A DNA stretch of 64,000 nt from an uncultured Prevotellaceae bacterium (GTDB lineage Bacteria; Bacteroidota; Bacteroidia; Bacteroidales; Bacteroidaceae), in NCBI GenBank assembly GCA_937898415.1, contig CALDLA010000009.1, positions 4,272-68,271 on the forward strand, in the 5' to 3' direction. Shown here piece by piece: positions 5,473 through 52,358 of this stretch. The notes beneath the pieces are model-generated. The model saw nothing but the letters and a program-made list of their open reading frames with translations. It ran no database searches and was not told the DNA's origin. How positions within the stretch are numbered: position 1 is the stretch's first letter; every line of letters begins with the position of its first letter. The translations under genes and the position numbers were made by a program.

Positions 5473-5513
5473 GGGAGCAGCATCCATTGCGGTGTTGCTC
5501 CTCTTTATTTATT
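5473..5513. terminator. bidirectional hairpin terminator between Hsp20 and dinB
   Basis: GGGAGCAGCA / TGTTGCTCC stem followed by TCTTTATTTATTT. Confidence 0.55.
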
Positions 5514-6606
5514 TCTCTGGCCATGGCTCAAATTCCAATTCCAACTCAATCCATTGATTTTCTTCCTGTGGTGTGGCAATCTTTTGATTGGAAACGCCCA
5601 ATCCTAACAGTCGGATGGGGTGTGTGTGGCGCTCGGCGTAGCCGCTTTGCTTGTCAAAGAACTCCACTTGTTGCATCAACTGCTTGGCCAACGGAAGGAT
5701 TTCGTCTTTGGTGCGGAGAATATAATCAACAGTGATGCTGCGGGTGATTTGCCGGAAGTCCAGAAACTTCACTTTCAGTGTCAGGGTGCGGCCCTCGAAG
5801 TCATTCTTCTCGATGCGCCTGACTAGTTCGAGCACCGTGTGATACAGGTGAATGGTGACGGCGGCATTCTCGCTGATGTCCGATTCAAAGGTCTGTTCAC
5901 AGCTGACACTCTTCCGTTCCCACTCGCTGATGACAGGCCGGTTGTCGATACCTCGCGAGAAATCGTAGAACACTTGCCCCATCTTGCCGAACTCCTGCGT
6001 CAGTCGGCTCAGCGACATGTTTCTCAGGTCAAGTCCCGTGAAGATTCCCATTCGGTGCATTTTCTCAGCGGTCTTCTGACCTATACCCCAAATCTTCTCT
6101 ATCTTCAGTTGTGCGATGAAGTCCAAAGCCCTGTCAGGGTGAATCACTGTCAGCCCGTCGGGTTTGCGCCAATCGGAGGCAATCTTTGCCAGGAACTTGC
6201 AGTAGCTCACGCCTGCCGATGCCGTCAGTCCCGTCGTCTCACGGATACGCTGCTTGATTTCTCGCGCAATATCCACGCCCAACTCAATTCCCTTCTTATT
6301 CTCCGTCACATCGAGGAAGGCTTCGTCGAGGGATATAGGCTCTATCAGGTCGGTATAGTCGTGGAATATCTCATGTAACTGTGCTGAAACCTCCTTATAC
6401 TTTTGGAAATGCGGCTCCACGATGATCAGTTGCGGACACAGCCGCTTGGCAACCTGAATGGACTGTGCCGAATGCACGCCAAACCGCCGTGCTTCGTAGC
6501 TGGCTGTTGATACCACGCCCCGTTCGGCATCGTGCCCCACCGCTATCGGCTTGCCACGAAGCTCAGGATTGTCGCGCTGCTCTACAGCCGCGAAAAACTG
6601 GTCCAT
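5509..6606 (-). CDS. dinB: DNA polymerase IV (Y-family), apparently N-terminally short
   Basis: MDQFFAAVEQRDNPELRGKPIAVG..., SLDEAFLDVT, and little-finger region. In-frame stops lie 9-10 codons upstream of the ATG. Confidence 0.88.
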   Translation of the reverse strand: MDQFFAAVEQRDNPELRGKPIAVGHDAERGVVSTASYEARRFGVHSAQSIQVAKRLCPQLIIVEPHFQKYKEVSAQLHEIFHDYTDLIEPISLDEAFLDVTENKKGIELGVDIAREIKQRIRETTGLTASAGVSYCKFLAKIASDWRKPDGLTVIHPDRALDFIAQLKIEKIWGIGQKTAEKMHRMGIFTGLDLRNMSLSRLTQEFGKMGQVFYDFSRGIDNRPVISEWERKSVSCEQTFESDISENAAVTIHLYHTVLELVRRIEKNDFEGRTLTLKVKFLDFRQITRSITVDYILRTKDEILPLAKQLMQQVEFFDKQSGYAERHTHPIRLLGLGVSNQKIATPQEENQWIELELEFEPWPEK

Positions 6607-37278: not shown

Positions 37279-39555
37279 TTGAACTTTGCCGACATCATAC
37301 TGCCCGTGCCGCTCGACGGCACTTTTACCTACGCCGTACCGTCCCAGTGGCAACAGCAGGCGGCGCCGGGATGCCGTGTACTCGTCCCCTTCGGACGCGG
37401 CAAGCAGTATGTCGGACTGATTGCCACCCTACACGACAACCGTCCCGAGGGCTACGAGGTGAAGGACATCCAGATGCTCATCGACACACAGCCGATATTG
37501 CTTCCTGAGCAGTATCGGCTGTGGCAGTGGATAGCCGACTATTATATGTCGCCCATCGGCGAGGTTTTCAAGGCGGCCCTGCCTGCCGGACTGAAGGCCG
37601 AGGACGGCTACCGTCCGAAGACGGAGACCTACATCCGACTGACTCCCCAGTTCCGCAACGAGCAGTCGCTGCACATCGCCCTCGACATGCTGAAACGGGC
37701 ACAGAAGCAGCTGGACTGCTTCGTGGAGTTCCTGACTCTCTCGGGAGCCGACATGAATCCCGAATGCCCGGCCGAAGTCACACGCGAGGAACTGATGAAC
37801 TCGTCGAACGCCACCCTCCAGACCGTCACCATGCTGCAGAAACGCGGCATGCTGGAGACCTATGAGGTGGAGGTGGGCCGACTGAATCACGGCGGCGAGC
37901 CACACCCTGAGAATATCAAACGCCTGAGCGAGGCTCAGGAAACGGCCTACAACCAGATACTGCTGTCGATGATGAAGAAGCAGGTGACATTGCTCCACGG
38001 CGTCACCTCCAGTGGCAAGACCGAAATCTATATCCACCTCATCCAGCGCGAGATAGAGCAGCACCGGCAGGTGCTCTACCTGCTGCCCGAGATTGCCCTG
38101 ACCGTACAGATGATGGACCGTCTGCGCCGCGTCTTCGGCGACCGCTTGGGCATCTATCACTCCAAGTACAGCGATGCCGAGCGGGTGGAAATCTGGCAGA
38201 AGCAACTCTCCGGCCATCCTTACGACGTCATCCTCGGTGCCCGTTCTGCCGTTTTCCTGCCCTTCCAACGGCTCGGCCTCGTCATCGTCGACGAGGAGCA
38301 CGAGACCAGCTTCAAGCAGCAGGACCCCATGCCCCGCTATCATGCACGCTCAGCAGCCATCATGATGGCAAGTCTCACTCCACCCTCCACCCTCCACCCT
38401 CCACGAGTGTTACTCGGCTCCGCCACCCCCTCGATGGAGTCCTACCACAACGCGATGACGGGCAAGTACGGCTATGTGCAGCTGACGGAGCGCCACCAAG
38501 GGCTCGAATTGCCTGAGATACAGGTCGTGGACATCAAGGACCTGCAGCACCGCAAGATGATGAACGGTCCCTTCTCACCGCTTCTGTTAACACGCATACG
38601 CGAGGCGCTGGAACGTGGCGAACAGGCCATCCTCTTCCAGAACCGCCGAGGCTACGCCCCGATGTTGGAGTGCAAGTCGTGCGGATGGGTGCCCCACTGC
38701 CAGAACTGTGATGTATCGCTGACGCTCCACCGACAGATGAACCAGCTGGTCTGCCACTATTGCGGCGCCGTCTATCAGGTGCCCATAGAGTGTCCCAACT
38801 GCGGCGACATCCATCTGCAGGCCCACGGCTATGGTACGGAGAAGATTGAGGCCGACGTACGCGACATTTTCCCTGAAGCCCGCATCAGCCGCATGGACCT
38901 CGACACCACCCGTACCCGCAATGCCTACGAACGGCTCATCAGCGACTTCGCCTCCGGGCGCACCAACCTGCTCATCGGCACCCAGATGATTTCCAAGGGT
39001 CTCGACTTCGACCGTGTCAGCATCGTCGGCATCTTAGATGCTGATAAAATGCTCAACTATCCCGACTTCCGGGCTTACGAGCACGCCTTCATGATGATGT
39101 CTCAGGTCAGCGGACGCGCCGGACGCAAAGGGCGACGCGGACTGGTCATCCTACAGACGCGCCAGCCCCAACTGCCCATCATTCAGCAGATTGTACGCGG
39201 TGACTACCCCACCCTCTACCGCACGCTCTGCACCGAGCGCCAGCAGTTCCACTACCCACCCTTCTACCGACTTATCGACGTCTACCTGAAACACCGCAGC
39301 GACGAATTGGTCGAGGTTGCCGCCCAGGAGCTGGGCTTCCGCCTGCGCCAGTGGTTCGGCGGTCGCGTCCTCGGCCCCGACAAACCCGGCATCTCGCGCG
39401 TAAAATCCCTCTGCATCCGCAAACTCGTCCTCAAATTAGAGAACAGCCTCAACATGGCCGAGGTGCGCCGATACCTGACGCTTGCCCAACAGCAGATGCT
39501 CCAGGACAAGCGCTACGCCTCCCTCCAGGTCTATTACGACGTTGACCCCCTCTGA
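37279..39555 (+). CDS. priA: primosomal protein N' (replication restart helicase), TTG start
   Basis: ADIILPVPLDGTFTYAVP N-terminus, Walker A GVTSSGKTE, DEEHE, Cys4 zinc motifs (CKSCGW...CQNCD...CHYCG...CPNCG), and LIGTQMISKGLDF. Confidence 0.93.
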   Translation: MNFADIILPVPLDGTFTYAVPSQWQQQAAPGCRVLVPFGRGKQYVGLIATLHDNRPEGYEVKDIQMLIDTQPILLPEQYRLWQWIADYYMSPIGEVFKAALPAGLKAEDGYRPKTETYIRLTPQFRNEQSLHIALDMLKRAQKQLDCFVEFLTLSGADMNPECPAEVTREELMNSSNATLQTVTMLQKRGMLETYEVEVGRLNHGGEPHPENIKRLSEAQETAYNQILLSMMKKQVTLLHGVTSSGKTEIYIHLIQREIEQHRQVLYLLPEIALTVQMMDRLRRVFGDRLGIYHSKYSDAERVEIWQKQLSGHPYDVILGARSAVFLPFQRLGLVIVDEEHETSFKQQDPMPRYHARSAAIMMASLTPPSTLHPPRVLLGSATPSMESYHNAMTGKYGYVQLTERHQGLELPEIQVVDIKDLQHRKMMNGPFSPLLLTRIREALERGEQAILFQNRRGYAPMLECKSCGWVPHCQNCDVSLTLHRQMNQLVCHYCGAVYQVPIECPNCGDIHLQAHGYGTEKIEADVRDIFPEARISRMDLDTTRTRNAYERLISDFASGRTNLLIGTQMISKGLDFDRVSIVGILDADKMLNYPDFRAYEHAFMMMSQVSGRAGRKGRRGLVILQTRQPQLPIIQQIVRGDYPTLYRTLCTERQQFHYPPFYRLIDVYLKHRSDELVEVAAQELGFRLRQWFGGRVLGPDKPGISRVKSLCIRKLVLKLENSLNMAEVRRYLTLAQQQMLQDKRYASLQVYYDVDPL
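38378..38405. repeat. heptamer array CTCCACC x3 + CTCCACG inside priA coding sequence
   Basis: Read directly from the sequence. It encodes ...SLTPPSTLHPPRV... just before the conserved LLGSATPS. Confidence 0.85.
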
Positions 39556-39562
39556 CAAATTT

Positions 39563-39620
39563 TACGAAGCCTTCCAACACTTTTTTGGAAGCCATGGAAA
39601 AAGTGTTGGATGGCTTCGTA
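39563..39620. repeat. 23-bp-arm inverted repeat after priA (possible terminator, no T-run)
   Basis: TACGAAGCCTTCCAACACTTTTT ... AAAAAGTGTTGGATGGCTTCGTA. The loop TGGAAGCCATGG carries a third GAAGCC copy. Confidence 0.45.
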
Positions 39621-39961
39621 GCAAGAAATGCGTAGGCAAGCACATTGAACCTATTGTTCTTTCTTGGCATAAAATCGCCTTTATTCCGCTATGAAGGGCG
39701 AGAAACTATAAGGTTTAGCGGAATAAGCTTTATTTCATTCCGTTTTTAACACTTTGCAGTGTTGATATTACGATTTTTTTAAACTTTGCAGCACGATTGA
39801 AAACGAAAGCATTGTATATTTGCAGCCAAACAAAACAGGAAAGTATGAGCTTTTTATCAAAAATCTCATTAAAAAACTTAGATTTTTGATGATTTGCTCA
39901 TACTTTTTTTTGGCTGATTGACTTTTTTTCCTTACATTTGCAGCTATATTTGGTAACTGTT

Positions 39962-41054
39962 ATGAATAAAGGGATTGTTATAGGACGTGAACGTGAGATG
40001 TCTGAACTCCAACGTTGCATGGAGTCGGACCGCTCTGAGTTCGTGATTGTGTATGGCCGTCGTCGAGTCGGCAAAACATACCTTGTGGATAACTTCTTTA
40101 ATTATGAGTATGATTACCAACAATATCTATGTCCGACCATTCACATTGAATGAGGTAGAGCAATATATGCATAGCCGCGGAGCCTCATGGGACAGATATC
40201 AACTACTGCAGACGTACATGATCATTGGCGGCATTCCTTTTTACTATAGTCTGCTGAATGTAAAGGAGAGCCTTGTTCAGAATGTGGACCGTCTGTTCTT
40301 TCGCAAGAATGGGGAATTGAGAATAGAGTTTGAAGAACTGTTCAGCGCACTATTCAGCAATACAGAGAAATATACCAGTGTTGTGAAACTGCTGAATGGC
40401 AAGCGAGAGGGCATGACACGTGAGGAGATAGAAAAGGCAACAAATATAGACAAATCGGTACTAACCATCGTACTTCGAAACTTAGAACGTAGCGACTTCG
40501 TTCTGCGTTATTCACAGTTCGGCAACAAATCGAAGGGTGCCATTTATCGGTTGGTTGATTTTTATACCTTATTTTATTATAGGTTTATTGACAGCTTCAA
40601 TGCCCAGGACGAAGAATGGTGGAGCCATAATTTCCAGTCTCCGTCAGTAGAGTCGTGGCAGGGACTGTCGTTCGAACTTCTTAGCCTGTTACACTTGCAG
40701 CAAATAAAACAGAAGCTGGGTATATCAGGCATGGCCACTTCAGCTTCTTCATGGAGGTATGTGCCCACAAAGAAGCAAAAAGACAATGGCGAAAAAGGTA
40801 CGCAAATAGATTTGCTGATTGACCGTGCAGACAGGATTATTAACCTATGCGAGATGAAATTCTCTGTAAAGCCGTACAACATCACCGACAGCTACGAGAA
40901 TACACTCAGAAACAGGATGAGTCTGTTCCAAGAGAAGGCAAAGACGACAAAAACGCTTGTCTATTCTTTTGTCACGACATTCGGAGTGGCAAATGCCGTT
41001 GGGCGAAGCATCGTAGGTAGTGAAGTGACCATGGATGATTTATTCGGCAAATAA
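39962..41054 (+). pseudogene. decayed AAA-type ATPase (archaeal-ATPase/DUF234-like 'ATP-binding protein') with internal deletion and frameshift
   Basis: The N-terminal part MNKGIVIGREREMSELQ...VIVYGRRRVGKTYLVDNFFN stops at 40153. A second frame continues ...NNIYVRPFTLNEVEQYMHS... to 41054. No Walker B region lies between the P-loop and the PFTL segment. Confidence 0.7.
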
Positions 41055-41080
41055 AAGAAGTTTGCACTTGTTTTTTTAAT

Positions 41081-41390
41081 GAACATATGTTCGTTGGCCT
41101 TTTCACATATGTTCATAAGGTTGAGAACCTATGTTGGGCTGAAATCGCGTTTATTAATAAATAGCATGCAAATTATTAATAAGTAGCGTGCTATTTATTA
41201 ATAAATGACGACGAAGTCAAAAATACCCCCCAATAAATTGGCTCGAGCCAAAACCCCATTTAGCTCGAGCCAATGCCCCTTTTGGCTCGAGCCAACTCCC
41301 CGATTGGCTCTTAATGACTTTTCCTGATTTCAAAACCCTGCCTTATTGCGTAATAACCCAAGGTTATTTGACGATAACCCCGGGTTATTT
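41081..41390. repeat. four consecutive triplet arrays of distinct palindromes phased at 21-22 bp
   Basis: ACATATGTTC-type cores at 41083/41105/41127. TTATTAATAA at 41151/41173/41195. TTGGCTCGAGCCAA at 41238/41260(TTAG..)/41282 plus a half-site at 41304. ATAACC-N3-GGTTAT-type at 41332 (degenerate)/41353/41374. Confidence 0.85.
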
Positions 41391-41473
41391 GCTATACGTA
41401 CGTTTTTACGCTCTGGCAGTTAAATTTTTCTTAAATTACGCCCAATTGTACAAGAAGTAAGGATTTTATTTCG

Positions 41474-41481
41474 TATTTTTG
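41474..41481 (+). promoter_or_regulatory. -7 box TATTTTTG upstream of hsdM
   Basis: The sequence is cgTATTTTTGcaaatg, about 210 nt upstream of the hsdM ATG. Confidence 0.4.
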
Positions 41482-41692
41482 CAAATGCTATTGCCCTGCT
41501 GACTCTAAATCTATTTAGTGAGAAGAGTTATCGGGCGAGGGCACTACTTTGTGGAAAAGCGACACTGCACGTATTGTGGCAGCAGGAGATACCCTCGTTT
41601 TTTCTGCTTTGTGGAAACCTAAAACTGTAGAACCCTCTGACGCTTGGGTATCAGTCAGACCAATTGCTGCTGACCACGCTATCCAAGGATAT

Positions 41693-43297
41693 ATGGCAAA
41701 GAAAGTAAAAGAGGAAACGCTGAATCTTGATAACATTCTATTCAAGTGTCGGGATATTCTGCGACAGGCAAAGAACTCAGGGTCGTTTTTCGAAAAGCGC
41801 GACATGATGCTGACACTCGTGTTCCTACGGTTTATTGGTGAGAAATACGAGGATGGTGTTGCAAAGTTGCGCCAGAAGTTGATAGACGAAGGGCTTGACC
41901 CTGATGACGAAGAAATCGTAAAGGCTTTCTTCGAGGATGCCACCTTTGCCGACGGTACTTTCGACCTTCCACCAGAATCGCGTTGGTCCACCATCATCAA
42001 CACGGCAGCACCACAATTGAACGTGGCTCTTGATACAGCTCTCAGAAGTATTGGTGCCACTAATCCTGACTTGAAAGGATGCTTCGTGGAGGGTACGTTC
42101 ACGCAGCGCAATCTGGGTGCCAACGACATCAAGAAGATTGTGGATGAGGTGAACAAGATCAGTCATAAGACTTTTGGCGAAGAAAAAGACCTCATTGGAC
42201 GTGTCTATGAATATTTCCTGAAGGAGTTTGCCGTCAACGCCACCAAAGAAGAGGGTGAGTTCTATACCCCGCACGATGTGGTACAACTGATTGCTACCGT
42301 CATAGAGCCTTTTGACGGTACGCTCTATGACCCCTGTTGCGGTTCGGGCGGAATGTTCATCCAAAGCTCAGAACTGGTAAAAGCCAAGCAGGGCGATATA
42401 AGCCGTATCAATGTGTATGGTCAGGAGAAAGAGGCAGCGACCTATCGACTGGCCAAGATGAACCTTGCACTTCGTGGCATCAGTCATAATCTGGGGAGCG
42501 AGAGCGATTCCTCCTTCACCAACGACCTTCACCGAGGGCTGTATTTCGACTACATCATGGCCAATCCTCCCTTCAACCTCAAAGGCTGGTATAATGACAA
42601 CCTTCAGTATGATAGCCGATGGGCAGACTATCAGACTCCTCCAGAAAGCAATGCCAACTATGCCTGGATTCTTCACATGCTTTCCCATCTGAAGAAAACT
42701 TCAGGTGTGGCAGGCTTCTTGCTGGCCAATGGTGCTCTGGGCGATACCGATGCCCTCGAAATCCGAAAGAAACTGATAGAAAATGATAAGGTGGAAGCCA
42801 TTATCATTCTGCCCAGAGAGCTGTTTATCACCACTGACATCAGCGTCACCTTCTGGATTCTCAATCAGAACAAACGAGGAGGCCGCTATCATGGGCGCGA
42901 GCTTCGCAACCGTGAGCACGAAATTCTCTTCATGGACTTACGCCGCTGGACTGAGAATCCTGTTAAGGGCGAACAAAAGAAAAAGGTGCAACTCGTTACT
43001 GAACAGATTCAGCGAGTAGCCGACCTTTATCATCAATGGCAATCTGTCGGTACAGACGGCAAGAACTTTGCCGAGCCAGAGCTTTATCGCAGCGTAGGGA
43101 TAAAGGAGATAGAGCAAAACAACTGGACGCTGGTTCCCAGCAAATATATTGAGTTTATCGACCACGATTTAGAGATAGACTATCCCAAGGAAATGGCTCG
43201 CATTCAGCAGGAAATGAAGGAGCTGATGACAAGGGAAAAGGAATCACAACGAATGCTTGAAGAGGCGTTTAAAGGTATTGGATATGGGATTGAATAA
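41693..43297 (+). CDS. hsdM: type I restriction-modification system methyltransferase subunit
   Basis: HsdM N-domain (LFKCRDILR...LVFLRFI), motif I DPCCGSGGM and motif IV NPPF. The internal ATG at 41693 (MAKKVKEE...) is preferred over the track start. Confidence 0.93.
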   Translation: MAKKVKEETLNLDNILFKCRDILRQAKNSGSFFEKRDMMLTLVFLRFIGEKYEDGVAKLRQKLIDEGLDPDDEEIVKAFFEDATFADGTFDLPPESRWSTIINTAAPQLNVALDTALRSIGATNPDLKGCFVEGTFTQRNLGANDIKKIVDEVNKISHKTFGEEKDLIGRVYEYFLKEFAVNATKEEGEFYTPHDVVQLIATVIEPFDGTLYDPCCGSGGMFIQSSELVKAKQGDISRINVYGQEKEAATYRLAKMNLALRGISHNLGSESDSSFTNDLHRGLYFDYIMANPPFNLKGWYNDNLQYDSRWADYQTPPESNANYAWILHMLSHLKKTSGVAGFLLANGALGDTDALEIRKKLIENDKVEAIIILPRELFITTDISVTFWILNQNKRGGRYHGRELRNREHEILFMDLRRWTENPVKGEQKKKVQLVTEQIQRVADLYHQWQSVGTDGKNFAEPELYRSVGIKEIEQNNWTLVPSKYIEFIDHDLEIDYPKEMARIQQEMKELMTREKESQRMLEEAFKGIGYGIE

Positions 43298-44399
43298 GTA
43301 TAAACTTGGGGAACTCATCGAATTATCTGATGAGAGGAATTACTCGGGCAAGTATTCGCTTGATAGTGTTAAAGGCATTTCAACAGAGAAAACTTTTATT
43401 GATACAAAAGCAAATATGGACGGTGTATCATTAGATACATATAAAGTTGTTAATCCTGGTGAATTCTCTTATGTTCCAGATACATCAAGAAGAGGAGATA
43501 AAATAGCTTTGGCATTTAACAACTCAAATGTAGCCATTCTTATTTCATCCATCTACACGACATTTAAGTGTAGGCGAAAAGATTTATTAATACCAGAATT
43601 CCTATTTATATTCTTCAACCGCCCTGAGTTTGACCGTTATTCTCGTTTCAATTCATGGGGAAGTGCAAGAGAGACTTTCTCGTGGGAAGATTTCTGTGAT
43701 ATTGACATCACTCTCCCTTCCGTTGAACAGCAGCGCAAATACGTTGACGTTTATCTGTCACTTCAAAAGAACCTTGAAGCATACCAAAGCAAGGTAGATG
43801 AATTAAAACTTGTCTGTGATGGGTACTTGGACAAATTAAAGGCTGAGAGTGGAAGATTGAAAATCGGAGAACTTCTTGAAGAGGTGGACAACAGGAATAA
43901 TGGTTCGAAGATACAATCGGTCAAGGGAATCAATATTGAGAAGAGTTTCATGGACTCTGTTGCTGATACGAATGGCGTTGATTTGTCGAAGTACAAGGTC
44001 GTCAATGAGAATGAATTTGCTTTCAGCGGTATGCAAACAGGAAGAGACGAATGTATAAGGATTGCCCTTAATGAAAGCAAAAATCCCATTATCGTTTCAC
44101 CCGCTTATACAGTCTTGAAGGTTAAGAACGATTCCGTACTGGTTCCGTATATCCAGCTGTGGTTCTCCAGAAAGGAGATTGACCGTTATGGATGGTTTGC
44201 AAGCGATGGGAGCATACGCTCAAATCTGGACTTGGAGCGTTTCTTTGATATGCAAATCCCCATCCCGTCTATTGAGACCCAGCGTTCGATAGCCTCAATA
44301 TACAAAGTCTATAAGGAGCGTAAGGCCATTGCCTCCCAGCTAAAAGAGCAACTAAACAATCTCTGTCCTATACTGATAAAAGGCTCATTACAAAACTAA
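43284..44399 (+). CDS. hsdS: type I R-M specificity subunit (two target-recognition domains)
   Basis: It overlaps the hsdM stop by 14 nt. It has duplicated TRD architecture with central and C-terminal coiled conserved regions. Confidence 0.87.
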   Translation: MGLNKYKLGELIELSDERNYSGKYSLDSVKGISTEKTFIDTKANMDGVSLDTYKVVNPGEFSYVPDTSRRGDKIALAFNNSNVAILISSIYTTFKCRRKDLLIPEFLFIFFNRPEFDRYSRFNSWGSARETFSWEDFCDIDITLPSVEQQRKYVDVYLSLQKNLEAYQSKVDELKLVCDGYLDKLKAESGRLKIGELLEEVDNRNNGSKIQSVKGINIEKSFMDSVADTNGVDLSKYKVVNENEFAFSGMQTGRDECIRIALNESKNPIIVSPAYTVLKVKNDSVLVPYIQLWFSRKEIDRYGWFASDGSIRSNLDLERFFDMQIPIPSIETQRSIASIYKVYKERKAIASQLKEQLNNLCPILIKGSLQN

Positions 44400-44414
44400 A
44401 ATCATTACCAGACA

Positions 44415-46076
44415 ATGGAAGACTATAAAGCCATATTTCAACAGCTCATTACCCATGTAGAGCAGGAGGTGATAGAATACAAGACTGCCGAGAATCAGTA
44501 TGATATGAATAAACTCGGCAAGTATTTCTCTGCATTGAGCAATGAGGCAAATCTGCGTGATGTGGAGTTCGCATGGATTGTGCTGGGCGTGAATAACGAC
44601 CGTAAGGCCGTAGGCACACAATTCCTGATGGACGAGACCAAACGGCAACTTATGAAACATGATATTGCTGTCAACACCACAGGAGGTCTGACCTTCCGAG
44701 AGATAGTTCCCATCGATGTAGAAGGGAAACGGGTGCTGATGTTCAAGATACCAGCTGCGCCAAGGAATATTGTCACCAAGTGGAAGGGCATAGCATACGG
44801 GCGAAGCGGAGAAAGCTTAGAGCCATTGTCGCAAGACAAATATGACGCCATTCGCAACCAGCGTCCTGTGGATGACTGGTCTGCACACGTGGTTGAAGGA
44901 GCAACCATCAAGGATGATCTTGACGAACTGGCGCTGGCCAAAGCTCGCATCATGTTCAAGAAAGTGTATGATGACAAGCCGGCCGAAATGGTGGACGGAT
45001 GGTCTCAGGAAGAGTTTTTAAGGCATAGCGGGATGCTGAATGACGGAAAACTGACACGTGGCGCACTCCTTCTATTAGGAAAGCCAGAGGTGGCCTATAA
45101 GCTTTCGCCCGCTGTTCCTCAGATTACGTGGACACTGGTAAACGAGGAAGGCCGTAAGATAAACTATCAGCACTTCTCTATACCCTATATACTGACCGTT
45201 GATGAGGTGTTGGGCAAAATTCGCAACCTTACCATGCGGGAGATGCCTGGAGGCACACTGTTCCCTGACAAACTTATGCAGTATGATGACTTCATTATAC
45301 GCGAGGTGCTACATAACGCCATAGCACATCAGGACTATACGCTCTGTCAGAGAATAAACTTCATCGAGGGGTCGGACTATCTGTACTATTCAAATGCAGG
45401 CACCTTCTTCCCAGGCACGTTGGAGAATGCTCTTGACTCGCTAAAACAACAGAAGTTCTACAGGAATGACTGTCTTTGCAAAGGTATGGTGAGTTTCAAT
45501 ATGATTGACACAATAAGCAGTGGTATTCAGACGATGTTCTTCAAGCAGAAAGAGCGTCATTTCCCAATGCCTGACTATGAAATCAATGAGAACGTCCCAG
45601 AGGTAAACGTGAAGATATATGGTCGCGTCATCGATGAAAACTATGTTGAATTATTGAAGAGAGACAACTCGCTGTCGCTTAAAGAATGTATTTGGCTCGA
45701 TGCAATTCAGAAAAAGCGTCCAATAACTGATGATGCGCTGAGGATACTGAAAAGCAAAAAACTCATAGAATGGCACAAGCCTCATTATATCATATCGCGG
45801 GCTGTTGCCCAAAAGACTCACCAAGTTCCTGAATATACCAAGCAGAAGGGGCTGGATAAGAACAAACTGCTAAACATGTTGCAGCAATGCGTGGAAAATG
45901 CTGGTGATACAGGGATTATGCTTAAAGATATATATGAGTATATGCAAGTGACACTGCCATCAGGCAAATCGATTGATGCCAAAAAGAAAACGCTCAGTTA
46001 TTTGCTTCAGTGTCTTAAAGAATCGGGGCATATTTATTCCGAAAGACTAAAATGGAAAGCTTTAAAAAATAATTAG
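44415..46076 (+). CDS. AlbA_2/Schlafen-like DNA-binding domain protein with C-terminal ATPase-like and wHTH-like regions
   Basis: N-terminal ...EYKTAENQYDMNKLGKYFSALSNEANL...AWIVLGV... resembles AlbA_2 ('divergent AAA') domains, and the middle has ...REVLHNAIAHQDY.... It is embedded between hsdS and hsdR. Confidence 0.7.
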   Translation: MEDYKAIFQQLITHVEQEVIEYKTAENQYDMNKLGKYFSALSNEANLRDVEFAWIVLGVNNDRKAVGTQFLMDETKRQLMKHDIAVNTTGGLTFREIVPIDVEGKRVLMFKIPAAPRNIVTKWKGIAYGRSGESLEPLSQDKYDAIRNQRPVDDWSAHVVEGATIKDDLDELALAKARIMFKKVYDDKPAEMVDGWSQEEFLRHSGMLNDGKLTRGALLLLGKPEVAYKLSPAVPQITWTLVNEEGRKINYQHFSIPYILTVDEVLGKIRNLTMREMPGGTLFPDKLMQYDDFIIREVLHNAIAHQDYTLCQRINFIEGSDYLYYSNAGTFFPGTLENALDSLKQQKFYRNDCLCKGMVSFNMIDTISSGIQTMFFKQKERHFPMPDYEINENVPEVNVKIYGRVIDENYVELLKRDNSLSLKECIWLDAIQKKRPITDDALRILKSKKLIEWHKPHYIISRAVAQKTHQVPEYTKQKGLDKNKLLNMLQQCVENAGDTGIMLKDIYEYMQVTLPSGKSIDAKKKTLSYLLQCLKESGHIYSERLKWKALKNN

Positions 46077-46186
46077 TCAGTTTTTAGTTAGTTTTTAGTT
46101 AGTTTTTAGTTAGTTTTTAGTTGGTTTTTAGTTGGTTTTTAGGTCGATTTGGCTCGATTTAGTTAATTTTTAGTTAGATTTTAGAT
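46075..46186. repeat. about 10 tandem copies of an 11-bp unit (AGTTAGTTTTT and variants) ending 3 nt before the hsdR ATG
   Basis: agtcagttttt, agttagttttt x3, agttggttttt x2, aggtcgattt, ggctcgattt, agttaattttt, agttagatttt. Confidence 0.9.
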
Positions 46187-46188
46187 AT

Positions 46189-49100
46189 ATGGCGAGAAAC
46201 CTAAACAACATCAATGGCCGCTTCGTGGAGAGTGACTACGAGAATGCGCTCATCTCTTTCTTGGAGAAAGAAGAATGGGAGTATCTCTTTGGTGATAATA
46301 TTTCAAGAGCCGACAAGAAGGAAGTCCTGAATATGGATGACCTCGTTAATTTCTTGAAGGACAACAATAAAGAGAAAGGCTTGGATGATGAAGAAATCCG
46401 TCAGATTGCCGATAAAGTCAGACTTGTAGGAGCCGACACCGACTTTGCCACATTGCATGAGGTCTATAAATGGATGGTGGATGGCATATCATTTACCTCG
46501 AAGAAAGGCATAACTTATACCATCAGTTTAATTGACTTTGGTAAATGGGACAATAACATCTTCAGGGTAGTCAATCAGTTCAGCGTTGAGTACATTAACA
46601 ATGGAGAGAAGAAAACACGTCGCCCCGATGTGTTACTCTATGTGAATGGCTTGCCTGTTTGTGTCATAGAACTGAAGAATCCAGCTGATGCCAATGCCAC
46701 GATAGAGGACGCTTGGGAGCAAATCAACATACGTTATTGGCGCGACATTCCCCACCTGCTGCATTATTGTCCGCTGGCCTGCATCAGCGATGGGGTGAAG
46801 ACACGCTTAGGCACGGTGCGTACACCCTATGAGCATTTCTATGCCTGGCGAAGAGTAGAGAATGAGGATAAAGTCTCTACTATGCCTTTCGAGGAACTGG
46901 AAACGATGGTAAGAGGCGTTTATCGTCCGGAGCGTTTCTTGGAGATATTCAGGGACTATGTCTATTTCCAAGACGAGAAATATGATAGTGACGAGAAGGA
47001 AATAGTGTGTCGCTATCCGCAATTCTTCGCCACACGATTACTGCGCGAGAGCATCATCGGCTCAGTAAAGACCAAGAGCGGGAAGGGTGGAACCTATTTC
47101 GGCGCTACGGGCTGCGGCAAGACATATACTATGGCTTTTCTGGCCCGTCAGCTATCCATGCGGTGTGCGGCAGAGATAGGTTCGCCAACCATCCTGATGA
47201 TAGTTGACCGCGAGGATCTGCAGAAGCAGGGGGCAAAGCTATTCACCAAGAGCGAAGAGTATCTTGGTCTTGGTGTTGTAGAAACGGTGCCTACCAGAAA
47301 GAAATTGCGCGAAGAACTTGGTGCCCGAGAGAGTGGCGGTTTCTTCATCTGCACGATACAGAAGTTCTGCGACAGGAAGAATGACCCAATAGGTCTTATC
47401 AATGAGCGTTCCAATATCATTTGTTTCAGCGATGAAGCTCACCGCACACAGATAGAAGGCTCGAAGCGTATCAAGTTCAGCGACGATGCCGACGAGAACA
47501 TGAAGGCCATGATTTCCAAGCCATACGCCAAAGTGTTGCGCGAGGCCCTCCCTAATGCTACGTTTGTTGGTTTCACGGGTACGCCCATTGCCGAGACCTA
47601 TCAGACCTTTGGCGATGAGATAGACCGCTACACGATGGACCAGGCTGTGGCCGACGAGATTACCGTCCCCATCAAATATCATCCTCGCATAGCCAAGGTG
47701 CTGCTCAATCAAGAGAAGGTGAAGGAGATAGAGGCTTACTATGCACAATGCGCTGAGGAGGGCTCGACCAAAGAGGATATAGAAAAGAGCAAGAAGGCCA
47801 TGAGTTCGTTAGAGGAAATTTTAGGTCAGTCCGACCGTCTTGAAAAGTTGGCCGTTGATATTCACGACCACTATGTGGCTGCTGTTGCCAAAGATCCAGA
47901 CAGGGTGCAAAAAGCCATGATTGTCTGTTCCAAGAGAGAAATAGCATATAATCTGCTGATGAAGTTCAAGGAACACTATTCAGAATGGTTCGTTGAGCGT
48001 AAAACACCAGAAGGTGTGGAAGTTTCTGAGGAAGAGCTGAAGAAACTGAAGCTGATGCCAACGATTGCTATGGTGGCCAGTGTTGCCAGCAACGATGCCC
48101 CGGATATGTATAACTATCTAGGCGGTGTGAAGAATGACAAGCGGACAGAAGATTTGGATGCAGCTTACAAGCAGGAACATTCAAACTTCCGTATTGTCAT
48201 TGTTGTGGATATGTGGATTACCGGCTTTGATGTGGACTGTCTCACCTATATCTATAATGACAAACCGCTGCAAAAGCATACTCTTATCCAAACCATCAGT
48301 CGCGCCAACCGGAAATATCCAGGGAAGAAATACGGTCTGATTGTCGACTACATTGGTATTCGTGACCAGCTGTTGGAAGCAAGGAAAATATACGGAGGAG
48401 ACAATTCTGTAGCACTTACGGCAGATGATGTGGCGCAAGCTACAGGCATCTTCCGTGAACACCTGCAGATACTCATGATGCTGTTTAAGGATTATGACCT
48501 CACTCCTTTCCTGGATGTTGAAACTGATCCCGGACAGAGATACATCCTTTTAGCAAAGGCAGCAGAGTATGTGTTTGCATCAACAAAGGTGTTGAATTCT
48601 GAAAGCAAGGATGGCAAGAAGGCCAAGAAAGTCTCGTTCAAGACCTACTTCCTGAAAGAGGTGAAGAGAATGAGGAAAGCATATGACCTGTGTCAGCCAT
48701 CGGGTGAGTTGGAGGAAGAAGAAGAGGCATTGGCTCAGTGCTTCATGGCCATAGCCGGAATGGTTTATAAGATGAACGGAACGGATGCCCCAGACACTGA
48801 GACCATGAACCGCCGTGTGGCAAAAATGGTGGAGGAAGCGCTGAAATATAATAACGTTGAGAGTATTCTCGAAGACGGCGAAGAGATGGATATCTTTGGG
48901 CCAGAGTTCGTAGAGAGACTACATGATATTAAGATGCCCGCTTCAGGGCTGGAAATGCTCGTCAAGATGCTCCGTCAAAAGATTACGGAATACGGCAGAA
49001 CCAATCAAGTGGCATCAAAGAAATTTCAGGAAATGCTTGAGGCCACCATTAAACAGTATCATGACAGGCGCAAGTTCCTGTCTGAGCAGGAAGCTGGTGC

Positions 49101-49800
49101 TGCACAAGAGGCAACGGCAGAAAGCATCATCAAGGAGGCAACAGAGCAGGCTCTGGAAATACTGAAGAGGATGCAGGCCGACAAAGAAAGTTTCCGCAAG
49201 TTGGGCCTGACTTTTGAAGAGAAAGCCTTCTATGACATTCTGATTCACCTGAGAGACCAATACAACTTCGAGTATGGTGAGGACAAGGAGGTAGATGGGG
49301 TTGTCGTGAATGAGAAATGTAAGAGTCTGGCCAAGAAGATCCGTGTCATCATTGATGCCAAGTCATCCTTTGCCGACTGGCTTAACAACAAGAACATTCG
49401 CAACCAGCTCAAACAAGACATCAAGATATGTCTTGTGAAAAACAAGTATCCACCACAGTATACTCCAGAAGTTTTCCGTGAAGTAATGGTTCAAGTGGAG
49501 AACTTCAAGGAGAATGAGGATGTGATAGTTCGCAGGTTGGAGAATGTTGAAGATGACCGCGAAGTTCGCAATCTTATCTATCAGCGTCTACAGATGGATG
49601 TTGCCACAACTGATGCTGTTTTACAGCGTGAAGTGATGGAGACATATGGCGAACGCTATCCTAATATGGAGCCTAATGATTGGAGGCACGTCATTGAAGC
49701 ATACACTCCGATGGTAAGAGAAGCGGCTAAGCCAAAAGCGAAGAAAATATCTATGCCGCAGTATGAAAAGGCTGCGGGAGGTGACGACTATGACAATTAA
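46189..49800 (+). CDS. hsdR: type I restriction enzyme endonuclease/translocase subunit
   Basis: 1203 aa with a nuclease N-domain (RPDVLLYVNGLPVCVIELK), SF2 motifs (GATGCGKT, DEAHR, TGTP) and a long C-terminal extension. Confidence 0.93.
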   Translation: MARNLNNINGRFVESDYENALISFLEKEEWEYLFGDNISRADKKEVLNMDDLVNFLKDNNKEKGLDDEEIRQIADKVRLVGADTDFATLHEVYKWMVDGISFTSKKGITYTISLIDFGKWDNNIFRVVNQFSVEYINNGEKKTRRPDVLLYVNGLPVCVIELKNPADANATIEDAWEQINIRYWRDIPHLLHYCPLACISDGVKTRLGTVRTPYEHFYAWRRVENEDKVSTMPFEELETMVRGVYRPERFLEIFRDYVYFQDEKYDSDEKEIVCRYPQFFATRLLRESIIGSVKTKSGKGGTYFGATGCGKTYTMAFLARQLSMRCAAEIGSPTILMIVDREDLQKQGAKLFTKSEEYLGLGVVETVPTRKKLREELGARESGGFFICTIQKFCDRKNDPIGLINERSNIICFSDEAHRTQIEGSKRIKFSDDADENMKAMISKPYAKVLREALPNATFVGFTGTPIAETYQTFGDEIDRYTMDQAVADEITVPIKYHPRIAKVLLNQEKVKEIEAYYAQCAEEGSTKEDIEKSKKAMSSLEEILGQSDRLEKLAVDIHDHYVAAVAKDPDRVQKAMIVCSKREIAYNLLMKFKEHYSEWFVERKTPEGVEVSEEELKKLKLMPTIAMVASVASNDAPDMYNYLGGVKNDKRTEDLDAAYKQEHSNFRIVIVVDMWITGFDVDCLTYIYNDKPLQKHTLIQTISRANRKYPGKKYGLIVDYIGIRDQLLEARKIYGGDNSVALTADDVAQATGIFREHLQILMMLFKDYDLTPFLDVETDPGQRYILLAKAAEYVFASTKVLNSESKDGKKAKKVSFKTYFLKEVKRMRKAYDLCQPSGELEEEEEALAQCFMAIAGMVYKMNGTDAPDTETMNRRVAKMVEEALKYNNVESILEDGEEMDIFGPEFVERLHDIKMPASGLEMLVKMLRQKITEYGRTNQVASKKFQEMLEATIKQYHDRRKFLSEQEAGAAQEATAESIIKEATEQALEILKRMQADKESFRKLGLTFEEKAFYDILIHLRDQYNFEYGEDKEVDGVVVNEKCKSLAKKIRVIIDAKSSFADWLNNKNIRNQLKQDIKICLVKNKYPPQYTPEVFREVMVQVENFKENEDVIVRRLENVEDDREVRNLIYQRLQMDVATTDAVLQREVMETYGERYPNMEPNDWRHVIEAYTPMVREAAKPKAKKISMPQYEKAAGGDDYDN

Positions 49801-49854
49801 CACAAAATAATGAAAGCTATTTTGTCACTCCTTTTAGTAGGCTCCAAAAAACGG

Positions 49855-49919
49855 CACTCGAGTCAAATCATCGCTTGAGTCGAGTCAGATGATGAATTGA
49901 CTCGAGTGAATGTTTTTTT
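49855..49919 (+). terminator. long compound hairpin + T7 run after hsdR
   Basis: CACTCGAGTCAA-ATCATC-loop(GCTTGAGTCGAGTCA)-GATGAT-gaa-TTGACTCGAGTG followed by aatgTTTTTTT. Confidence 0.65.
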
Positions 49920-49989
49920 AAGCCATGTTTTAAGTCATTAATCATCAAGGCTAATTTCATATCGGCCGTCGTCTCTGCATCCACAACTT

Positions 49990-50115
49990 AAATATAGAGT
50001 CATCAAATGTTACAGAATGTTATGGAGTCGGAAAAATCTGCTATCTGCTGGAACTCATCAAGGCACACTATGAGACGTATGTTCTTCTTTTGAGCAATCT
50101 TCTGTGGCAGTTGAA
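49990..50115 (-). pseudogene. remnant of an ATPase Walker-B region
   Basis: The minus-strand frame reads ...VDYDNLQLPQKIAQKKNIRLIVCLDEFQQIADFSDSITFCNI*. This is an isolated fragment with no start codon. Confidence 0.4.
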
Positions 50116-50351
50116 GATTATCATAATCTACAGCATTTGTATGCTGCAAAGTTATGTATTTTTTTTATTAGTAACAAACTTCTTACTAATTTTTTAATGA
50201 CTTTTATAGAATCAATACCCGCCGAGACCTTGTTGAGATTGGTCGTACCATCGTTATTGACAATTCATAAGGTTCTTCTGCCATTTTGTTGAACACTTGT
50301 AAACAATTCGGATAAAGTTCTTATTTTCATCTGAAGATACCCTCAAACTGT

Positions 50352-50407
50352 TGAGTCGACTCATTCGATCAAATGAGTCGACTCGTTCGATCGAATGAGT
50401 CGACTCA
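50352..50407. repeat. three TGAGTCGACTC(A) palindromes phased at exactly 22 bp
   Basis: Copies start at 50352, 50374 and 50396. The spacers are TTCGATCAAA, TTCGATCGAA, then ACGCTTCGAACGAG. Confidence 0.88.
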
Positions 50408-50539
50408 ACGCTTCGAACGAGTTAATTAATGGAAAACTTGCCTTTTGTGTTAAAAAGACATAGGAAACGGCAGAATATAATATATTTTATTTTGCCGATT
50501 GCTATACTTTTACTATCTTTGCGGCAAAATTAGACAATT

Positions 50540-50878
50540 ATGAGTACTGTCATTGGAAGAAAAAAGAAATAGAAGTCTTCCATTTCCGCATGGAATATAA
50601 AGGGTGATGAAACGAGGGCTGGTGCGCAAGTGGATCTGCTTATTATCAGGGCTGACAACATCGTCAACCTCTGCGAGATGAAATTCTGCGACTCACCTTA
50701 TTCTATTGATAAGGAAGAAGAGACAAAGATGCTTCATCGGGAAAATTTGCTAAAGGAGACGCTTTCTTCTAAACAAAAAGTGCATCTGACATTGATAACT
50801 ACTTATGGACTTGTGCAAGGTAAGCATAGCGGAAAAGTTCAGAGGGTTGTTACGTGCGATGACTTATTCAAGAAATGA
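50540..50878 (+). pseudogene. second decayed paralog of the 39962..41054 ATPase (N-terminal stub + C-terminal 82 aa)
   Basis: TATCTTTG box, then ATG..MSTVIGRKKK*. The C-terminal ORF DLLIIRADNIVNLCEMKF...VVTCDDLFKK parallels QIDLLIDRADRIINLCEMKF...EVTMDDLFGK of the first copy. Confidence 0.6.
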
Positions 50879-50998
50879 AATCACCTCTATCAGTATAAGT
50901 CACGTTGAGGGGGAATCGTAAGAAAGTTTCCGTAAAATTTGGAGGTATCAAAAATAATTCCTATTTTTGCACCAAAAAGAGCAAAACATTATAGGATT

Positions 50999-51268
50999 AT
51001 GCCAGAAGTATTCAGATTTTTTGGTTTTTCTTTCTTCTTTTACAGCAGGGAGCATGAACCACCACACATTCATGTGGAAGGCAATGGTGGTATGGCAAAA
51101 TTCGACTGGGACGGAGAGGAATTCGTGCAAGTTGAAAAAACTGGGATAAAAGCCAACGACTTTAAGAAGATCAAGAAGATGGTTGATGACAACTTAAGCG
51201 TTGGAAAGAGTATTTTGACAAAGACAAAAGGGAGGACTGAACATGAAGATCACGAAGATTTGGTTTGA
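50999..51268 (+). CDS. DUF4160-family protein
   Basis: MPEVFRFFGFSFFFYSREHEPPHIHVEG is the family hallmark. A TATTTTTG box lies about 30 nt upstream. It overlaps the next gene by 26 nt. Confidence 0.72.
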   Translation: MPEVFRFFGFSFFFYSREHEPPHIHVEGNGGMAKFDWDGEEFVQVEKTGIKANDFKKIKKMVDDNLSVGKSILTKTKGRTEHEDHEDLV

Positions 51269-51644
51269 TGCCGACTATATTTATGGCAAGGACGAAAAAG
51301 AAAAGGAGTACAAGCAATCATTGCTATGGTATCCAAAGTTGCGTGATGCCTCTGACGATGTACGCAGTAAATACACCTTCGGAATGGGCGGTATCCATTG
51401 GCGCGACCTTGATGAGGACATAAGTTTTGAGAGCTTCGAGTACGAGGATGCCGAACCGAGCGCTTTGCAGCGTTTCTTCTTGACACACAAAGAAATCAAC
51501 ATAGCAGAGTTTGCCCGTTCAATGGGCTTAAACCCTACGTTGCTCCGAAATTACATAAATGGCTTCAAAAAGCCTTCGAAAGAACGTGAAGAGGAAATCA
51601 TTTCCCGTATTCACAAATTGGGTGAAGAGATGTTGGCTGCTTAA
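51243..51644 (+). CDS. DUF2442-like domain fused to a C-terminal HTH (XRE-like) segment
   Basis: N-terminal KITKIWFDADYIYG...GIHWRDLDEDISFESF and C-terminal INIAEFARSMGLNPTLLRNYINGFKKPS. Confidence 0.65.
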   Translation: MKITKIWFDADYIYGKDEKEKEYKQSLLWYPKLRDASDDVRSKYTFGMGGIHWRDLDEDISFESFEYEDAEPSALQRFFLTHKEINIAEFARSMGLNPTLLRNYINGFKKPSKEREEEIISRIHKLGEEMLAA

Positions 51645-51659
51645 ATACCAGATTAGTAT

Positions 51660-52358
51660 ATGGATGCAAAAAGAATACTGGGCTATCTGCGCCAGATTAT
51701 GGCGAACAACAACCGCGAATGGTTCCATGCCAACCATCAGGAGTATGAGGCAGTGCGGGCTGAGTGGGAGCGGGGTGTGCAGCAGGCCATCGGACGTATC
51801 ATCACCTTCGATCCCACGGTGGCTACACAGACAGTGAAGGACTGTACTTATCGCTTCAATCGCGATACACGTTTCTCGACAGACAAGTCTCCCTACAAGA
51901 ATCACTTCGGAGCCTACATCAATGCACACGGCAAGAAGGCGCTGCGCGGCGGCTATTACCTGCACATGGAGCCCGACAGCTGTCTGCTGGCCGTCGGCAA
52001 CTACTGGCTGCCAACGAATATCCTCACGGCTTGTCGTAATGAGCTGATGGCTAACGAGGAGCAGTGGCTGCGCTGCGTCGATACGCCAGCGTTCAAGAAG
52101 CTTTTCGCTGACGACGGCAACGCTACGTGGGAAAGTGCGCAGGGCTTCGGCATGTCGAAACTGAAGACCAGCCCGTCAGGCTTCCCACGTGACTATGCCT
52201 ACGTGAACTTCCTCCGGCTGAAGGACTACTGCGCCTGGCATCGCTTCGATAATGATTTCTTCGAGGGCGATGCCTGGCTCGATGAGATGGAACACGTCTT
52301 CCGAACAGCCAAGCCCATGATGGACTTTATGAACGCCGTTATCGATGACTACGAATAG
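51660..52358 (+). CDS. DUF2461 (TIGR02453)-family protein
   Basis: NNREWFHANHQEYE...YRFNRDTRFSTDKSPYKNHFGAYI...GGYYLHMEP. Confidence 0.78.
   Translation: MDAKRILGYLRQIMANNNREWFHANHQEYEAVRAEWERGVQQAIGRIITFDPTVATQTVKDCTYRFNRDTRFSTDKSPYKNHFGAYINAHGKKALRGGYYLHMEPDSCLLAVGNYWLPTNILTACRNELMANEEQWLRCVDTPAFKKLFADDGNATWESAQGFGMSKLKTSPSGFPRDYAYVNFLRLKDYCAWHRFDNDFFEGDAWLDEMEHVFRTAKPMMDFMNAVIDDYE

Follow-up and report, generated by a model that had tools for sequence, protein, structure and literature searches.

REP/BIME elements and REPINs of enterobacteria and pseudomonads are short extragenic palindromes that form hairpins, occur in several classes per genome and are arranged in mosaics past the 3' ends of genes; a REP is a single palindrome of about 35 bp or an inverted doublet. 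The BOX elements of Streptococcus pneumoniae are modular, non-coding intergenic repeats with variable internal tandem units and a stable predicted structure, and their modules boxA, boxB and boxC measure 45-59 bp. Neisserial dRS3/RS mosaics are assembled from small repeats, are bounded by short palindromes and lie beside variable genes as proposed promoters of recombination, with RS units of 50-150 bp enclosed by a single kind of inverted repeat, dRS3, which is 20 bp long. A spacing of about 22 bp, which is two helical turns, and sets of three or more sites are found in plasmid iterons and in Tn7 and Mu ends, which are asymmetric, follow one consensus per element and are located beside rep or transposase genes. 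Among Bacteroidales, the BrickBuilt MITE of Porphyromonas gingivalis is a non-coding repeat in which an internal minisatellite of about 22-23 nt, made of 23-nt direct repeats, is enclosed by IS-like terminal inverted repeats (PMC4596501).

The DNA analyzed here, referred to as the window, is a stretch of 64,000 nucleotides from an uncultured Prevotellaceae bacterium. Between 41081 and 41390 of the window, direct reading on a 22-bp ruler (41059-41420) shows four adjoining triplets of palindromes with a period of 21-22 bp, here called A1 to A4, and two further triplets, which are not in the earlier note, follow after hsdR (A5 at 49853-49908 and A6 at 50352-50407). We think it rather probable that four separate members of a dispersed family of extragenic palindromic repeats, each about 60-95 bp long, have piled up in the 310-bp stretch. 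The family is present in Prevotellaceae and other Bacteroidales. We read the arrays as undescribed tri-palindromic extragenic repeats of the REP/BIME/BOX kind that have built up past priA, where a variable hot spot is located. In our best reading they are closest in kind to REP/BIME, pneumococcal BOX, neisserial dRS3/NIME and BrickBuilt, and the features of REP are partly shared. The relevant features of the window are the following.

39563..39620, no strand assigned: post-priA hairpin, a long hairpin directly past the priA stop codon
39962..41054, + strand: decayed ATPase_2-family gene, frameshifted and about 120 aa shorter than its 484-aa homologues
41081..41136, no strand assigned: A1, three 22-bp units with core GAACATATGTTC, unit 3 decayed
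41150..41205, no strand assigned: A2, three times TTTATTAATAAA with the near-palindromic spacer TAGCATGCAA / TAGCGTGCTA, the entire array being one palindrome
41225..41316, + strand: A3 element, a run of six C, three times TTGGCTCGAGCCAA with C4 spacers, a half-site and the tail GGCTCTTAATGA
41330..41391, + strand: A4, AATAACC-N3-GGTTATT twice at 21 bp, preceded by a first copy that is half-decayed
41693..49800, + strand: type I R-M operon with hsdM, hsdS, an AlbA_2/HATPase_c_4 insert and hsdR
49846..49918, no strand assigned: A5, a run of six A, then CACTCGAGTCA / TGAGTCGAGTCA / TGACTCGAGTG, then a run of seven T
50352..50417, no strand assigned: A6, three times TGAGTCGACTCA with the palindromic spacer TTCGATCGAA

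An element generally consists of three 22-bp units, each with a palindrome of 12-15 bp and a spacer of 8-10 bp that is often palindromic itself, and in many copies the whole element is one long imperfect palindrome. A1 starts 27 bp past the stop codon of the decayed ATPase_2 ORF, has its cores GAACATATGTTC, TCACATATGTTC and GAACCTATGTTG at 41081, 41103 and 41125, and has no homologue among the fetched loci. The core of A2, TTATTAATAA, is located at 41151, 41173 and 41195, and the array contains a perfect 17-bp inverted repeat (41150-41166 / 41189-41205). In A3, TTGGCTCGAGCCAA is found at 41238 and 41282, with a TTAG variant at 41260 and a half-site at 41304, and a run of four to six C precedes each unit; in the window this array, with its asymmetric C4 spacers, is directly repeated and not globally palindromic. 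A4 possesses the palindrome ATAACC-N3-GGTTAT at 41354 and 41375, 21 bp apart, together with the half-decayed copy near 41332. The A5 element begins about 50 bp past the hsdR stop codon, and an ATPase fragment lies downstream of A6; the interval between these two arrays (49906-50352) has no detectable homologue. As the spacers of A2 and A6 are palindromic, a dyad axis occurs every 11 bp in both, in A6 by way of TTCGATCGAA.

The four triplets that had been noticed initially are real, since they can be read directly at their positions and TRF calls A2 and A3 as period-22 arrays. A scan of the window for phased near-palindromes gave 35 matches versus 1-5 in Markov shuffles, almost all of them at 41.0-41.4 kb and 49.8-50.4 kb. 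The arrays are indeed non-coding and phased at 21-22 bp, and they are neither CRISPR arrays nor plasmid iterons nor ordinary single terminators, as had been stated before. The further statement that they all lie on one register holds for the period of 21-22 bp but not for the phase, because the palindrome centers modulo 22 differ (12.5 in A1, 15.5 in A2, 16.5 in A3 and about 1 in A4). A1 to A4 have a common period but no common register, and neighboring arrays are offset in phase by 1-7 bp.

Compared with REP/BIME, in which single palindromes or doublets are the rule, the unit of the present elements is a fixed triplet of 22-bp sub-palindromes. No GTAG head was seen in them, and a RAYT-type transposase is missing from the gene families listed for flanking ORFs. 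Their copy number is so far low in comparison to REP, with at least five copies for one subfamily in one genome. Unlike in BOX with its longer modules, the internal units are palindromes of 22 bp that nearly always number three, and neither 22-bp phasing nor triplets are features of dRS3. The present elements differ from BrickBuilt in being palindromic and in showing no terminal inverted repeats. Of the traits that set iterons and Tn7 or Mu ends apart, namely asymmetry, one consensus per element and adjacent rep or transposase genes, none applies here.

The variable junction past priA, where the R-M island is located, contains elements of this family. The gene order in the window is gldLMN, an OMP gene, priA (37279-39555), an insert of about 12 kb, DUF2461 and a C10 peptidase gene. 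The insert holds, in this order, the decayed ATPase_2 gene, A1 to A4, hsdM, hsdS, the AlbA_2/HATPase_c_4 gene, hsdR, A5, A6, a second ATPase fragment and a DUF4160/DUF2442 pair. The gap between priA and DUF2461 (39556-51660), which carries the R-M island here, holds a 581-aa ORF in its place in strains whose PriA is 97% identical. None of A1 to A6 is present in these strains, and their sole repeat is a 22-bp unit in 2.3 copies with a GGCGCC core. In a species with 86% identical PriA, the cargo differs between contigs despite an identical PriA protein, with DUF4160 and an LRR gene in one contig and an MNT-type nucleotidyltransferase in another, and several contigs of this species stop about 200 bp past priA. 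Directly past priA, it carries three copies of TTTACCCGGAGTAAA and four copies of TGCTAAGTAGGCTAGTTAGCA with exact 22-bp periods, followed by 11-bp repeats; the layout of the hot spot therefore recurs with unrelated cores. Whether the phasing persists across different cores had been asked in the earlier note, and this point goes in its favor; the 22-bp arrays of the related species adjoin each other as well. The hot-spot loci are L197, L198 and L209-L214. In three of them (L209 10560-10900, L210 10990-11190 and L214 9090-9210), direct and inverted 11-bp repeats (ACACCTCACTCA or ACACCTCCCGT) surround a conserved core, CTTTCTACAAAGGGGTTTCAGAAGAAAA, immediately upstream of the next gene, in a layout reminiscent of the arm-type sites of integrases or of a promoter with flanking iterons.

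Within the island, the second ATPase remnant (50541-50878) joins about ten N-terminal codons directly to the C-terminal 91 aa, which share 41% identity with the C-terminal part of the first decayed ATPase. The two remnants flank the R-M operon and have the same orientation (+ strand). The hsdM leader (41400-41692) is long, with about 200 nt past a Bacteroidetes-type TAnnTTTG box near 41474, and it could be a structured 5' UTR; its final 118 bp are 91.5% identical in L114. Between the stop codon of the AlbA_2 gene and the ATG of hsdR, the gap is filled by ten 11-bp units (TTTTTAGTTAG) with phased T tracts (46073-46184). In L114, the closest operon, the AlbA_2 gene is missing and hsdS and hsdR are only 12 bp apart (TTAGTAACAGAT), and L119 has the AlbA_2 insert as in the window but different amplified 11-bp units (four times ATTTTGGCTCG and four times AATTTAGGTAT; 5483-5600). 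Because L114 lacks both and L119 amplifies other units, the AlbA_2 gene and the 11-bp array together look like an inserted module, in which the array appears to be fast-evolving.

The elements are copied into intergenic sites that are unrelated to each other, mostly just past the 3' ends of genes. The pattern CTCGAG-N16-CTCGAG-N16-CTCGAG was scanned across 185,579 species genomes, and more than 112 loci were among the matches listed, versus about 17 estimated by chance from 18 specified bases and about 1.2e12 positions on both strands. Many of the listed matches belong to Prevotella, Prevotellaceae, "Bacteroidaceae" and Alistipes assemblies. There they consist of exactly three TTGGCTCGAGCCAA, TTCACTCGAGTGAA or TTGACTCGAGTCAA at 22 bp, often several per genome, and several genomes have 2-5 matches among those listed. 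A subfamily of the type AAAAGGGGGGTCTCGAGCCAAA ... GTCGAC is present at at least five unrelated loci in Prevotella UBA2754 and also in other genomes, and its copies have sharp ends and unrelated flanks. The A5 family aligns across about 75-80 bp in ten loci, with the homology ending at the edges of the A run and the T run, and A5 itself shares 80-89% identity with copies in L052, L110, L103, L043, L039 and others.

L039 is a locus of a rumen Prevotellaceae MAG in which modules of the window are found within 0.8 kb in a different order and downstream of unrelated genes. It contains an A5-like array, an A2-like array of two units (5760-5806), A3 with A4, three copies of GAGTTAACTC, and the post-priA hairpin. 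The block of A3 and A4 has 82% identity over 174 bp between the window and this locus, where A4 again follows A3 (5957-6015). The post-priA hairpin is 93% identical to L039 6331-6388 and is itself a dispersed repeat. Arrays with three copies of GAGTTAACTC, which are related to A6, are present in L039, L091 and L110, and the A3 element, about 95 bp long, occurs with unrelated flanks in L039, L041 and L091, in the latter two alone. As the modules are reordered in L039 and A3 stands alone in L041 and L091, A1 to A4 are separate modules prone to stack and not one designed region. In L091, the two internal spacers of A3 are, compared with the window, in reverse-complement form between the same outer flanks, which indicates from the alignment that the inner segment was probably inverted between palindromic units. 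Between genomes catalogued as different species, the arrays are conserved to 80-90% in sequence. A pattern search for four array types found none in 2.9 million viral contigs, the region 41060-41420 with A1 to A4 had no BLAST match in plasmid records, and its matches in phage records were all non-significant (E about 0.1-0.3).

Each of the 34 CTCGAG arrays examined in Bacteroidales lies between genes, in most cases less than 200 bp away from a gene 3' end; the flanking genes are convergent at seven arrays, in tandem at 11 and divergent at two. The confinement of palindromes to extragenic DNA, a feature of REP, is therefore seen here as well (34/34, with hairpin z of -7 to -8). The arrays do not serve the R-M operon as a control region. 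In 80 metagenome loci with an HsdM that is 80-99% identical (1.03 Mb), neither a strict array of three palindromes nor a homologue of any of A1 to A6 was found. Of the hsdM leader, only the proximal 118 bp are shared, and among the 80 related operons by L114 alone. None of these operons is located near priA, ATPase_2 or DUF2461. Also downstream of close homologues of the ATPase_2 protein, which normally has 484 aa, there are no 22-bp arrays. The earlier note had named the AlbA_2 protein and the ATPases as candidate readers. A binding array that is specific to this locus and belongs to the R-M operon is not supported, as the elements are dispersed and absent from the 80 related operons, and neither is a co-occurrence with R-M genes, for which the note had proposed a test. 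A co-occurrence with ATPase loci fails for the close ATPase_2 homologues and is favored only insofar as orphan ATPase-nuclease and AlbA_2 genes are commoner beside the copies than as second neighbors. By and large, the arrays behave as generic, dispersed REP-like repeats with no locus association, which was the outcome named beforehand as speaking against the initial interpretation.

Among 54 ORFs adjacent to arrays, the families AAA-ATPase_like/PDDEXK_9 (4), AAA_14/DUF4143 (2), ATPase_2 (1), AlbA_2 (1), PIN_3 (2) and YafQ (1) were found, and among 134 second-neighbor ORFs, neither ATPase family is among the listed families, which have at least two members. We read this difference as probable co-location in variable regions; a closer link is conceivable. 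A Y1 transposase (RAYT) is not among the best 25 families listed for the 54 adjacent and 134 nearby ORFs, and the listed flanking families include no DNA-binding gene that is consistently beside the arrays.

As RNA, A2 (dG -30 kcal/mol, z -7.5), A5 (dG -43.9, z -8.4) and A6 (dG -45, z -7.3) are each predicted to fold into a single hairpin, and the post-priA hairpin reaches similar values (dG -35, z -8.3). A1 gives a weak single hairpin (dG -19.8, z -1.9), and in A3 neighboring units pair. The self-complementarity of the spacers in 41 arrays is about twice the shuffled value. Pairing models were compared on 21 arrays of the CACTCGAGTG type, which is the A5 family. In a hairpin of the whole array, with unit 1 paired to unit 3 and spacer 1 to spacer 2, 82.5% of the cells are paired, and 33 double-change cells are distributed over nine pairs. 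The covariation of this model is 0.162 versus 0.115 in shuffles and was reached in 0 of 500 shuffles, a control that kinship among the copies can inflate. With three local hairpins, 74.2% of the cells are paired, with 11 double-change cells over three pairs and no excess of covariation (0.075 versus 0.089 shuffled). Because the covariation exceeds the shuffles for the whole-array hairpin and not for the local hairpins, the constraint in the A5 family appears to be the symmetry of the whole element and not three independent sites. An intrinsic terminator is a G+C-rich hairpin directly before a U tract, downstream of a gene. A run of at least four T within 20 nt past the array, when read in the direction of the upstream gene, was found in 10 of 28 gene-array pairs; A5 is flanked by its A and T runs, and A1 to A4 as well as A6 are without a T run. 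Rfam 15 gave only sub-threshold matches, to miRNA hairpin models.

In the reading that we prefer, an element would fold as a hairpin with a stem of 25-30 bp, either as RNA or as extruded or single-stranded DNA. The elements could then act as 3'-end hairpins that terminate or protect transcripts or insulate, like REP and BOX elements, and such recombinogenic palindromes may aid the turnover of cargo at the hot spot. Several observations do not sit easily with this. A plain hairpin leaves the retention of three 22-bp units unaccounted for, the unrelated cores of A1, A2 and A4 share one layout, and a terminator-like T run accompanies only about a third of the copies. The A3 array of the window is not globally palindromic, terminal inverted repeats, target duplications and an associated transposase were not found in the flank alignments and the listed flanking families, and the comparison of L038 with L061, in which synteny stops at the gene, yielded no clean empty site. 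A hairpin role alone does not predict the 11/22-bp period or the near-constant number of three units. As this period, the three-unit count and the scarcity of T runs are not accounted for by a hairpin role, it must be considered that the arrays are helically phased binding sites on duplex DNA, occupied by dimers or alternating monomers every one or two turns. They would then form a nucleoprotein scaffold comparable to an operator, iteron, centromere or silencer, with cores that are read by paralogous proteins. Indeed, an unbiased scan for periods of 12-45 bp over 412 kb found triple arrays of near-palindromes only at 22 bp, including five with cores that were no part of the selection. In 1.2 Mb of related DNA, TRF found tandem repeats (at least 2.5 copies) with periods of 7, 9, 11, 12, 15, 18, 22, 24 and 44 and none of 13, 14, 16, 17, 19-21, 23, 25 or 26. 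The only periods above 10 that are not multiples of 3 are hence 11, 22 and 44. In non-coding DNA the tandem repeats have periods of 11 or 22 bp alone, and this strict periodicity suggests a constraint that has to do with the helical repeat. A scaffold is also favored by spacers that are palindromic above expectation, with a dyad about every 11 bp, by the sequence conservation of 80-90% between catalogued species, and by the 22-bp arrays with different cores at the priA hot spot of another species. The CTCGAG scan of species genomes moreover recovered a known case of 22-bp phasing, the dnaA-dnaN origin region of Nocardia. However, the many unrelated cores would require many readers, no DNA-binding gene is consistently adjacent, and the pair counts favor pairing of unit 1 with unit 3 over independent palindromes. 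Together with the position mostly at gene 3' ends and the phase shifts of 1-7 bp between neighbors, this makes such a scaffold doubtful in our view. In the Nocardia loci (L003, L013, L030, L044, L049 and L064), three GGATTCCTCGAGGAATCC-like palindromes are placed at 22-bp intervals between dnaA and dnaN, with conservation across Nocardia species. As the dnaA-dnaN intergenic region is the usual chromosomal origin in Actinobacteria, these palindromes may be phased pairs of DnaA boxes.

Other explanations start from the hot spot. The arrays could be sites of recombination or delimit cassettes, in the manner of integron attC sites or neisserial dRS3/NIME repeats, at which R-M, orphan ATPase and toxin-antitoxin genes are exchanged. 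The priA-DUF2461 cargo varies among near-identical strains and related species with 22-bp arrays there in several lineages, and the arrays bracket the R-M operon and adjoin decayed ATPases. Also the enrichment of AAA-ATPase_like/PDDEXK_9, AAA_14/DUF4143, ATPase_2, AlbA_2, PIN and YafQ in the flanks over second neighbors, the inverted inner segment of A3 in L091 and the many contigs that stop directly past priA would fit. We nevertheless think that this is unlikely, as the surroundings yielded no recombinase gene, a conserved crossover core is not apparent, most copies are beside housekeeping genes, and related R-M operons and ATPase_2 genes elsewhere are without arrays. A further reading, in which the 11/22-bp arrays are a distinct class of geometry-conserved, sequence-variable scaffolds that mark accessory and defense hot spots in Bacteroidales, appears similarly improbable. 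A dedicated protein, possibly an orphan ATPase-nuclease or AlbA_2 protein, would then read the duplex or cruciform DNA and promote insertion, inversion or silencing of the cargo beside the arrays. It is very unlikely that the arrays are functionless by-products of hairpin-driven template switching and of slippage that amplifies short palindromes, tolerated in permissive intergenic DNA. The different amplification of 11-bp units in sister loci (window 46073-46184 versus L119 5483-5600), the decay of outer half-units and the flips of spacer orientation among copies would be expected from such processes, but identical subfamilies at unrelated loci of different species and a copy number of nearly always three would not, nor would exclusive periods of 11/22 bp result from unconstrained slippage. 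We give hardly any credence to relic ends of Tn7- or Mu-like transposons, with three 22-bp transposase sites per end, that are stacked at an attachment site downstream of priA. The number and length of the sites in an array and a hot spot with defense cargo downstream of a conserved gene are reminiscent of such ends. Yet the units are palindromic, each array is its own inverted repeat, the arrays flanking the operon have different cores with no matching opposite end found, tnsABC and DDE genes are missing among the families listed for flanking ORFs, and copies sit singly past housekeeping genes.

Some known classes could be dismissed. For a MITE, flank alignments of nine and ten copies show sharp ends and neither a terminal repeat distinct from the internal palindrome nor a flanking direct repeat; terminal inverted repeats, target duplications and an associated transposase were not found in the flank alignments and the listed flanking families. 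Plasmid iterons or an oriV, which comprise direct repeats beside a rep gene, DnaA boxes and an A+T-rich unwinding element, are contradicted by the absence of a rep gene and of a plasmid match for A1 to A4, and by units that are palindromic and dispersed. Ends of the Tn7 or Mu type, in which asymmetric 22-bp transposase sites at both ends are inverted relative to each other and enclose transposase genes, were rejected on account of the palindromic units, the different cores on either side of the operon and the lack of a detected transposase gene. In a CRISPR array, usually accompanied by cas genes, identical repeats of 24-48 bp alternate with unique spacers that are similarly long, whereas here the period is 22 bp, the units are three and the spacers of 8-10 bp are mutually similar. 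A known RNA family was dismissed as well, with no Rfam 15 match at the gathering score, and so was an operator of the R-M operon, as the arrays are absent from the 80 loci with 80-99% identical HsdM. Arrays as decoys for restriction were considered, as CTCGAG is depleted outside the arrays, and this idea was dropped. In the whole window CTCGAG occurs eight times versus 18.9 expected, five times inside arrays and three times outside, and GATC occurs 74 times versus 246 expected; palindromes avoided by this genome are concentrated in its repeat elements.

A description of the elements was not found in the literature on BrickBuilt, on REP/RAYT in Bacteroides and on Prevotella intergenic repeats, and searches with literal cores gave only shRNA loops. 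If our preferred reading as dispersed extragenic repeats is correct, an undescribed REP/BOX-like family with an unusually regular three-unit 22-bp layout is present in abundant Prevotellaceae of gut and rumen and in some Rikenellaceae. Such elements break assemblies, and many contigs stop directly past priA. They can also mislead annotation towards false operators, iterons or CRISPR-like arrays, and they mark variable junctions of defense-gene exchange.

Leyella stercorea DSM 18206 is a cultured carrier of the elements, and Alistipes ihumii is among the carriers as well. Alistipes-type CACTCGAGTG arrays were also seen in L060 and L061, from an assembly labelled Methanomethylophilaceae archaeon, and in L055 (Oscillibacter); L060 in addition has an AAA-ATPase_like family gene that recurs in Bacteroidales loci, which suggests that these three are mis-binned Bacteroidales contigs. 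Two related R-M loci have other 22-bp arrays upstream of hsdM, not homologous to A1 to A6, namely seven copies of ACATCTCGTATATGTTCATCAA about 3.5 kb upstream (L125 333-481) and two adjoining sets on one register about 300 bp upstream (L153 742-913). A conserved hairpin of the form ATCAAAAATC ... GATTTTTGAT is found upstream of ATPase_2-family genes at three unrelated loci (window 39850-39915, L199 3895-3950 and L207 3915-3965) and probably belongs to the leader or promoter of these genes. On a rumen metagenome scaffold of 34.9 kb (L199/L208), five consecutive orphan ATPase genes (AAA_14/DUF4143 and ATPase_2) are separated by spacers of 300-650 bp that are rich in other long palindromes, and many homologues are located on contigs of 1.6-2.7 kb, as if flanked by assembly-breaking repeats.
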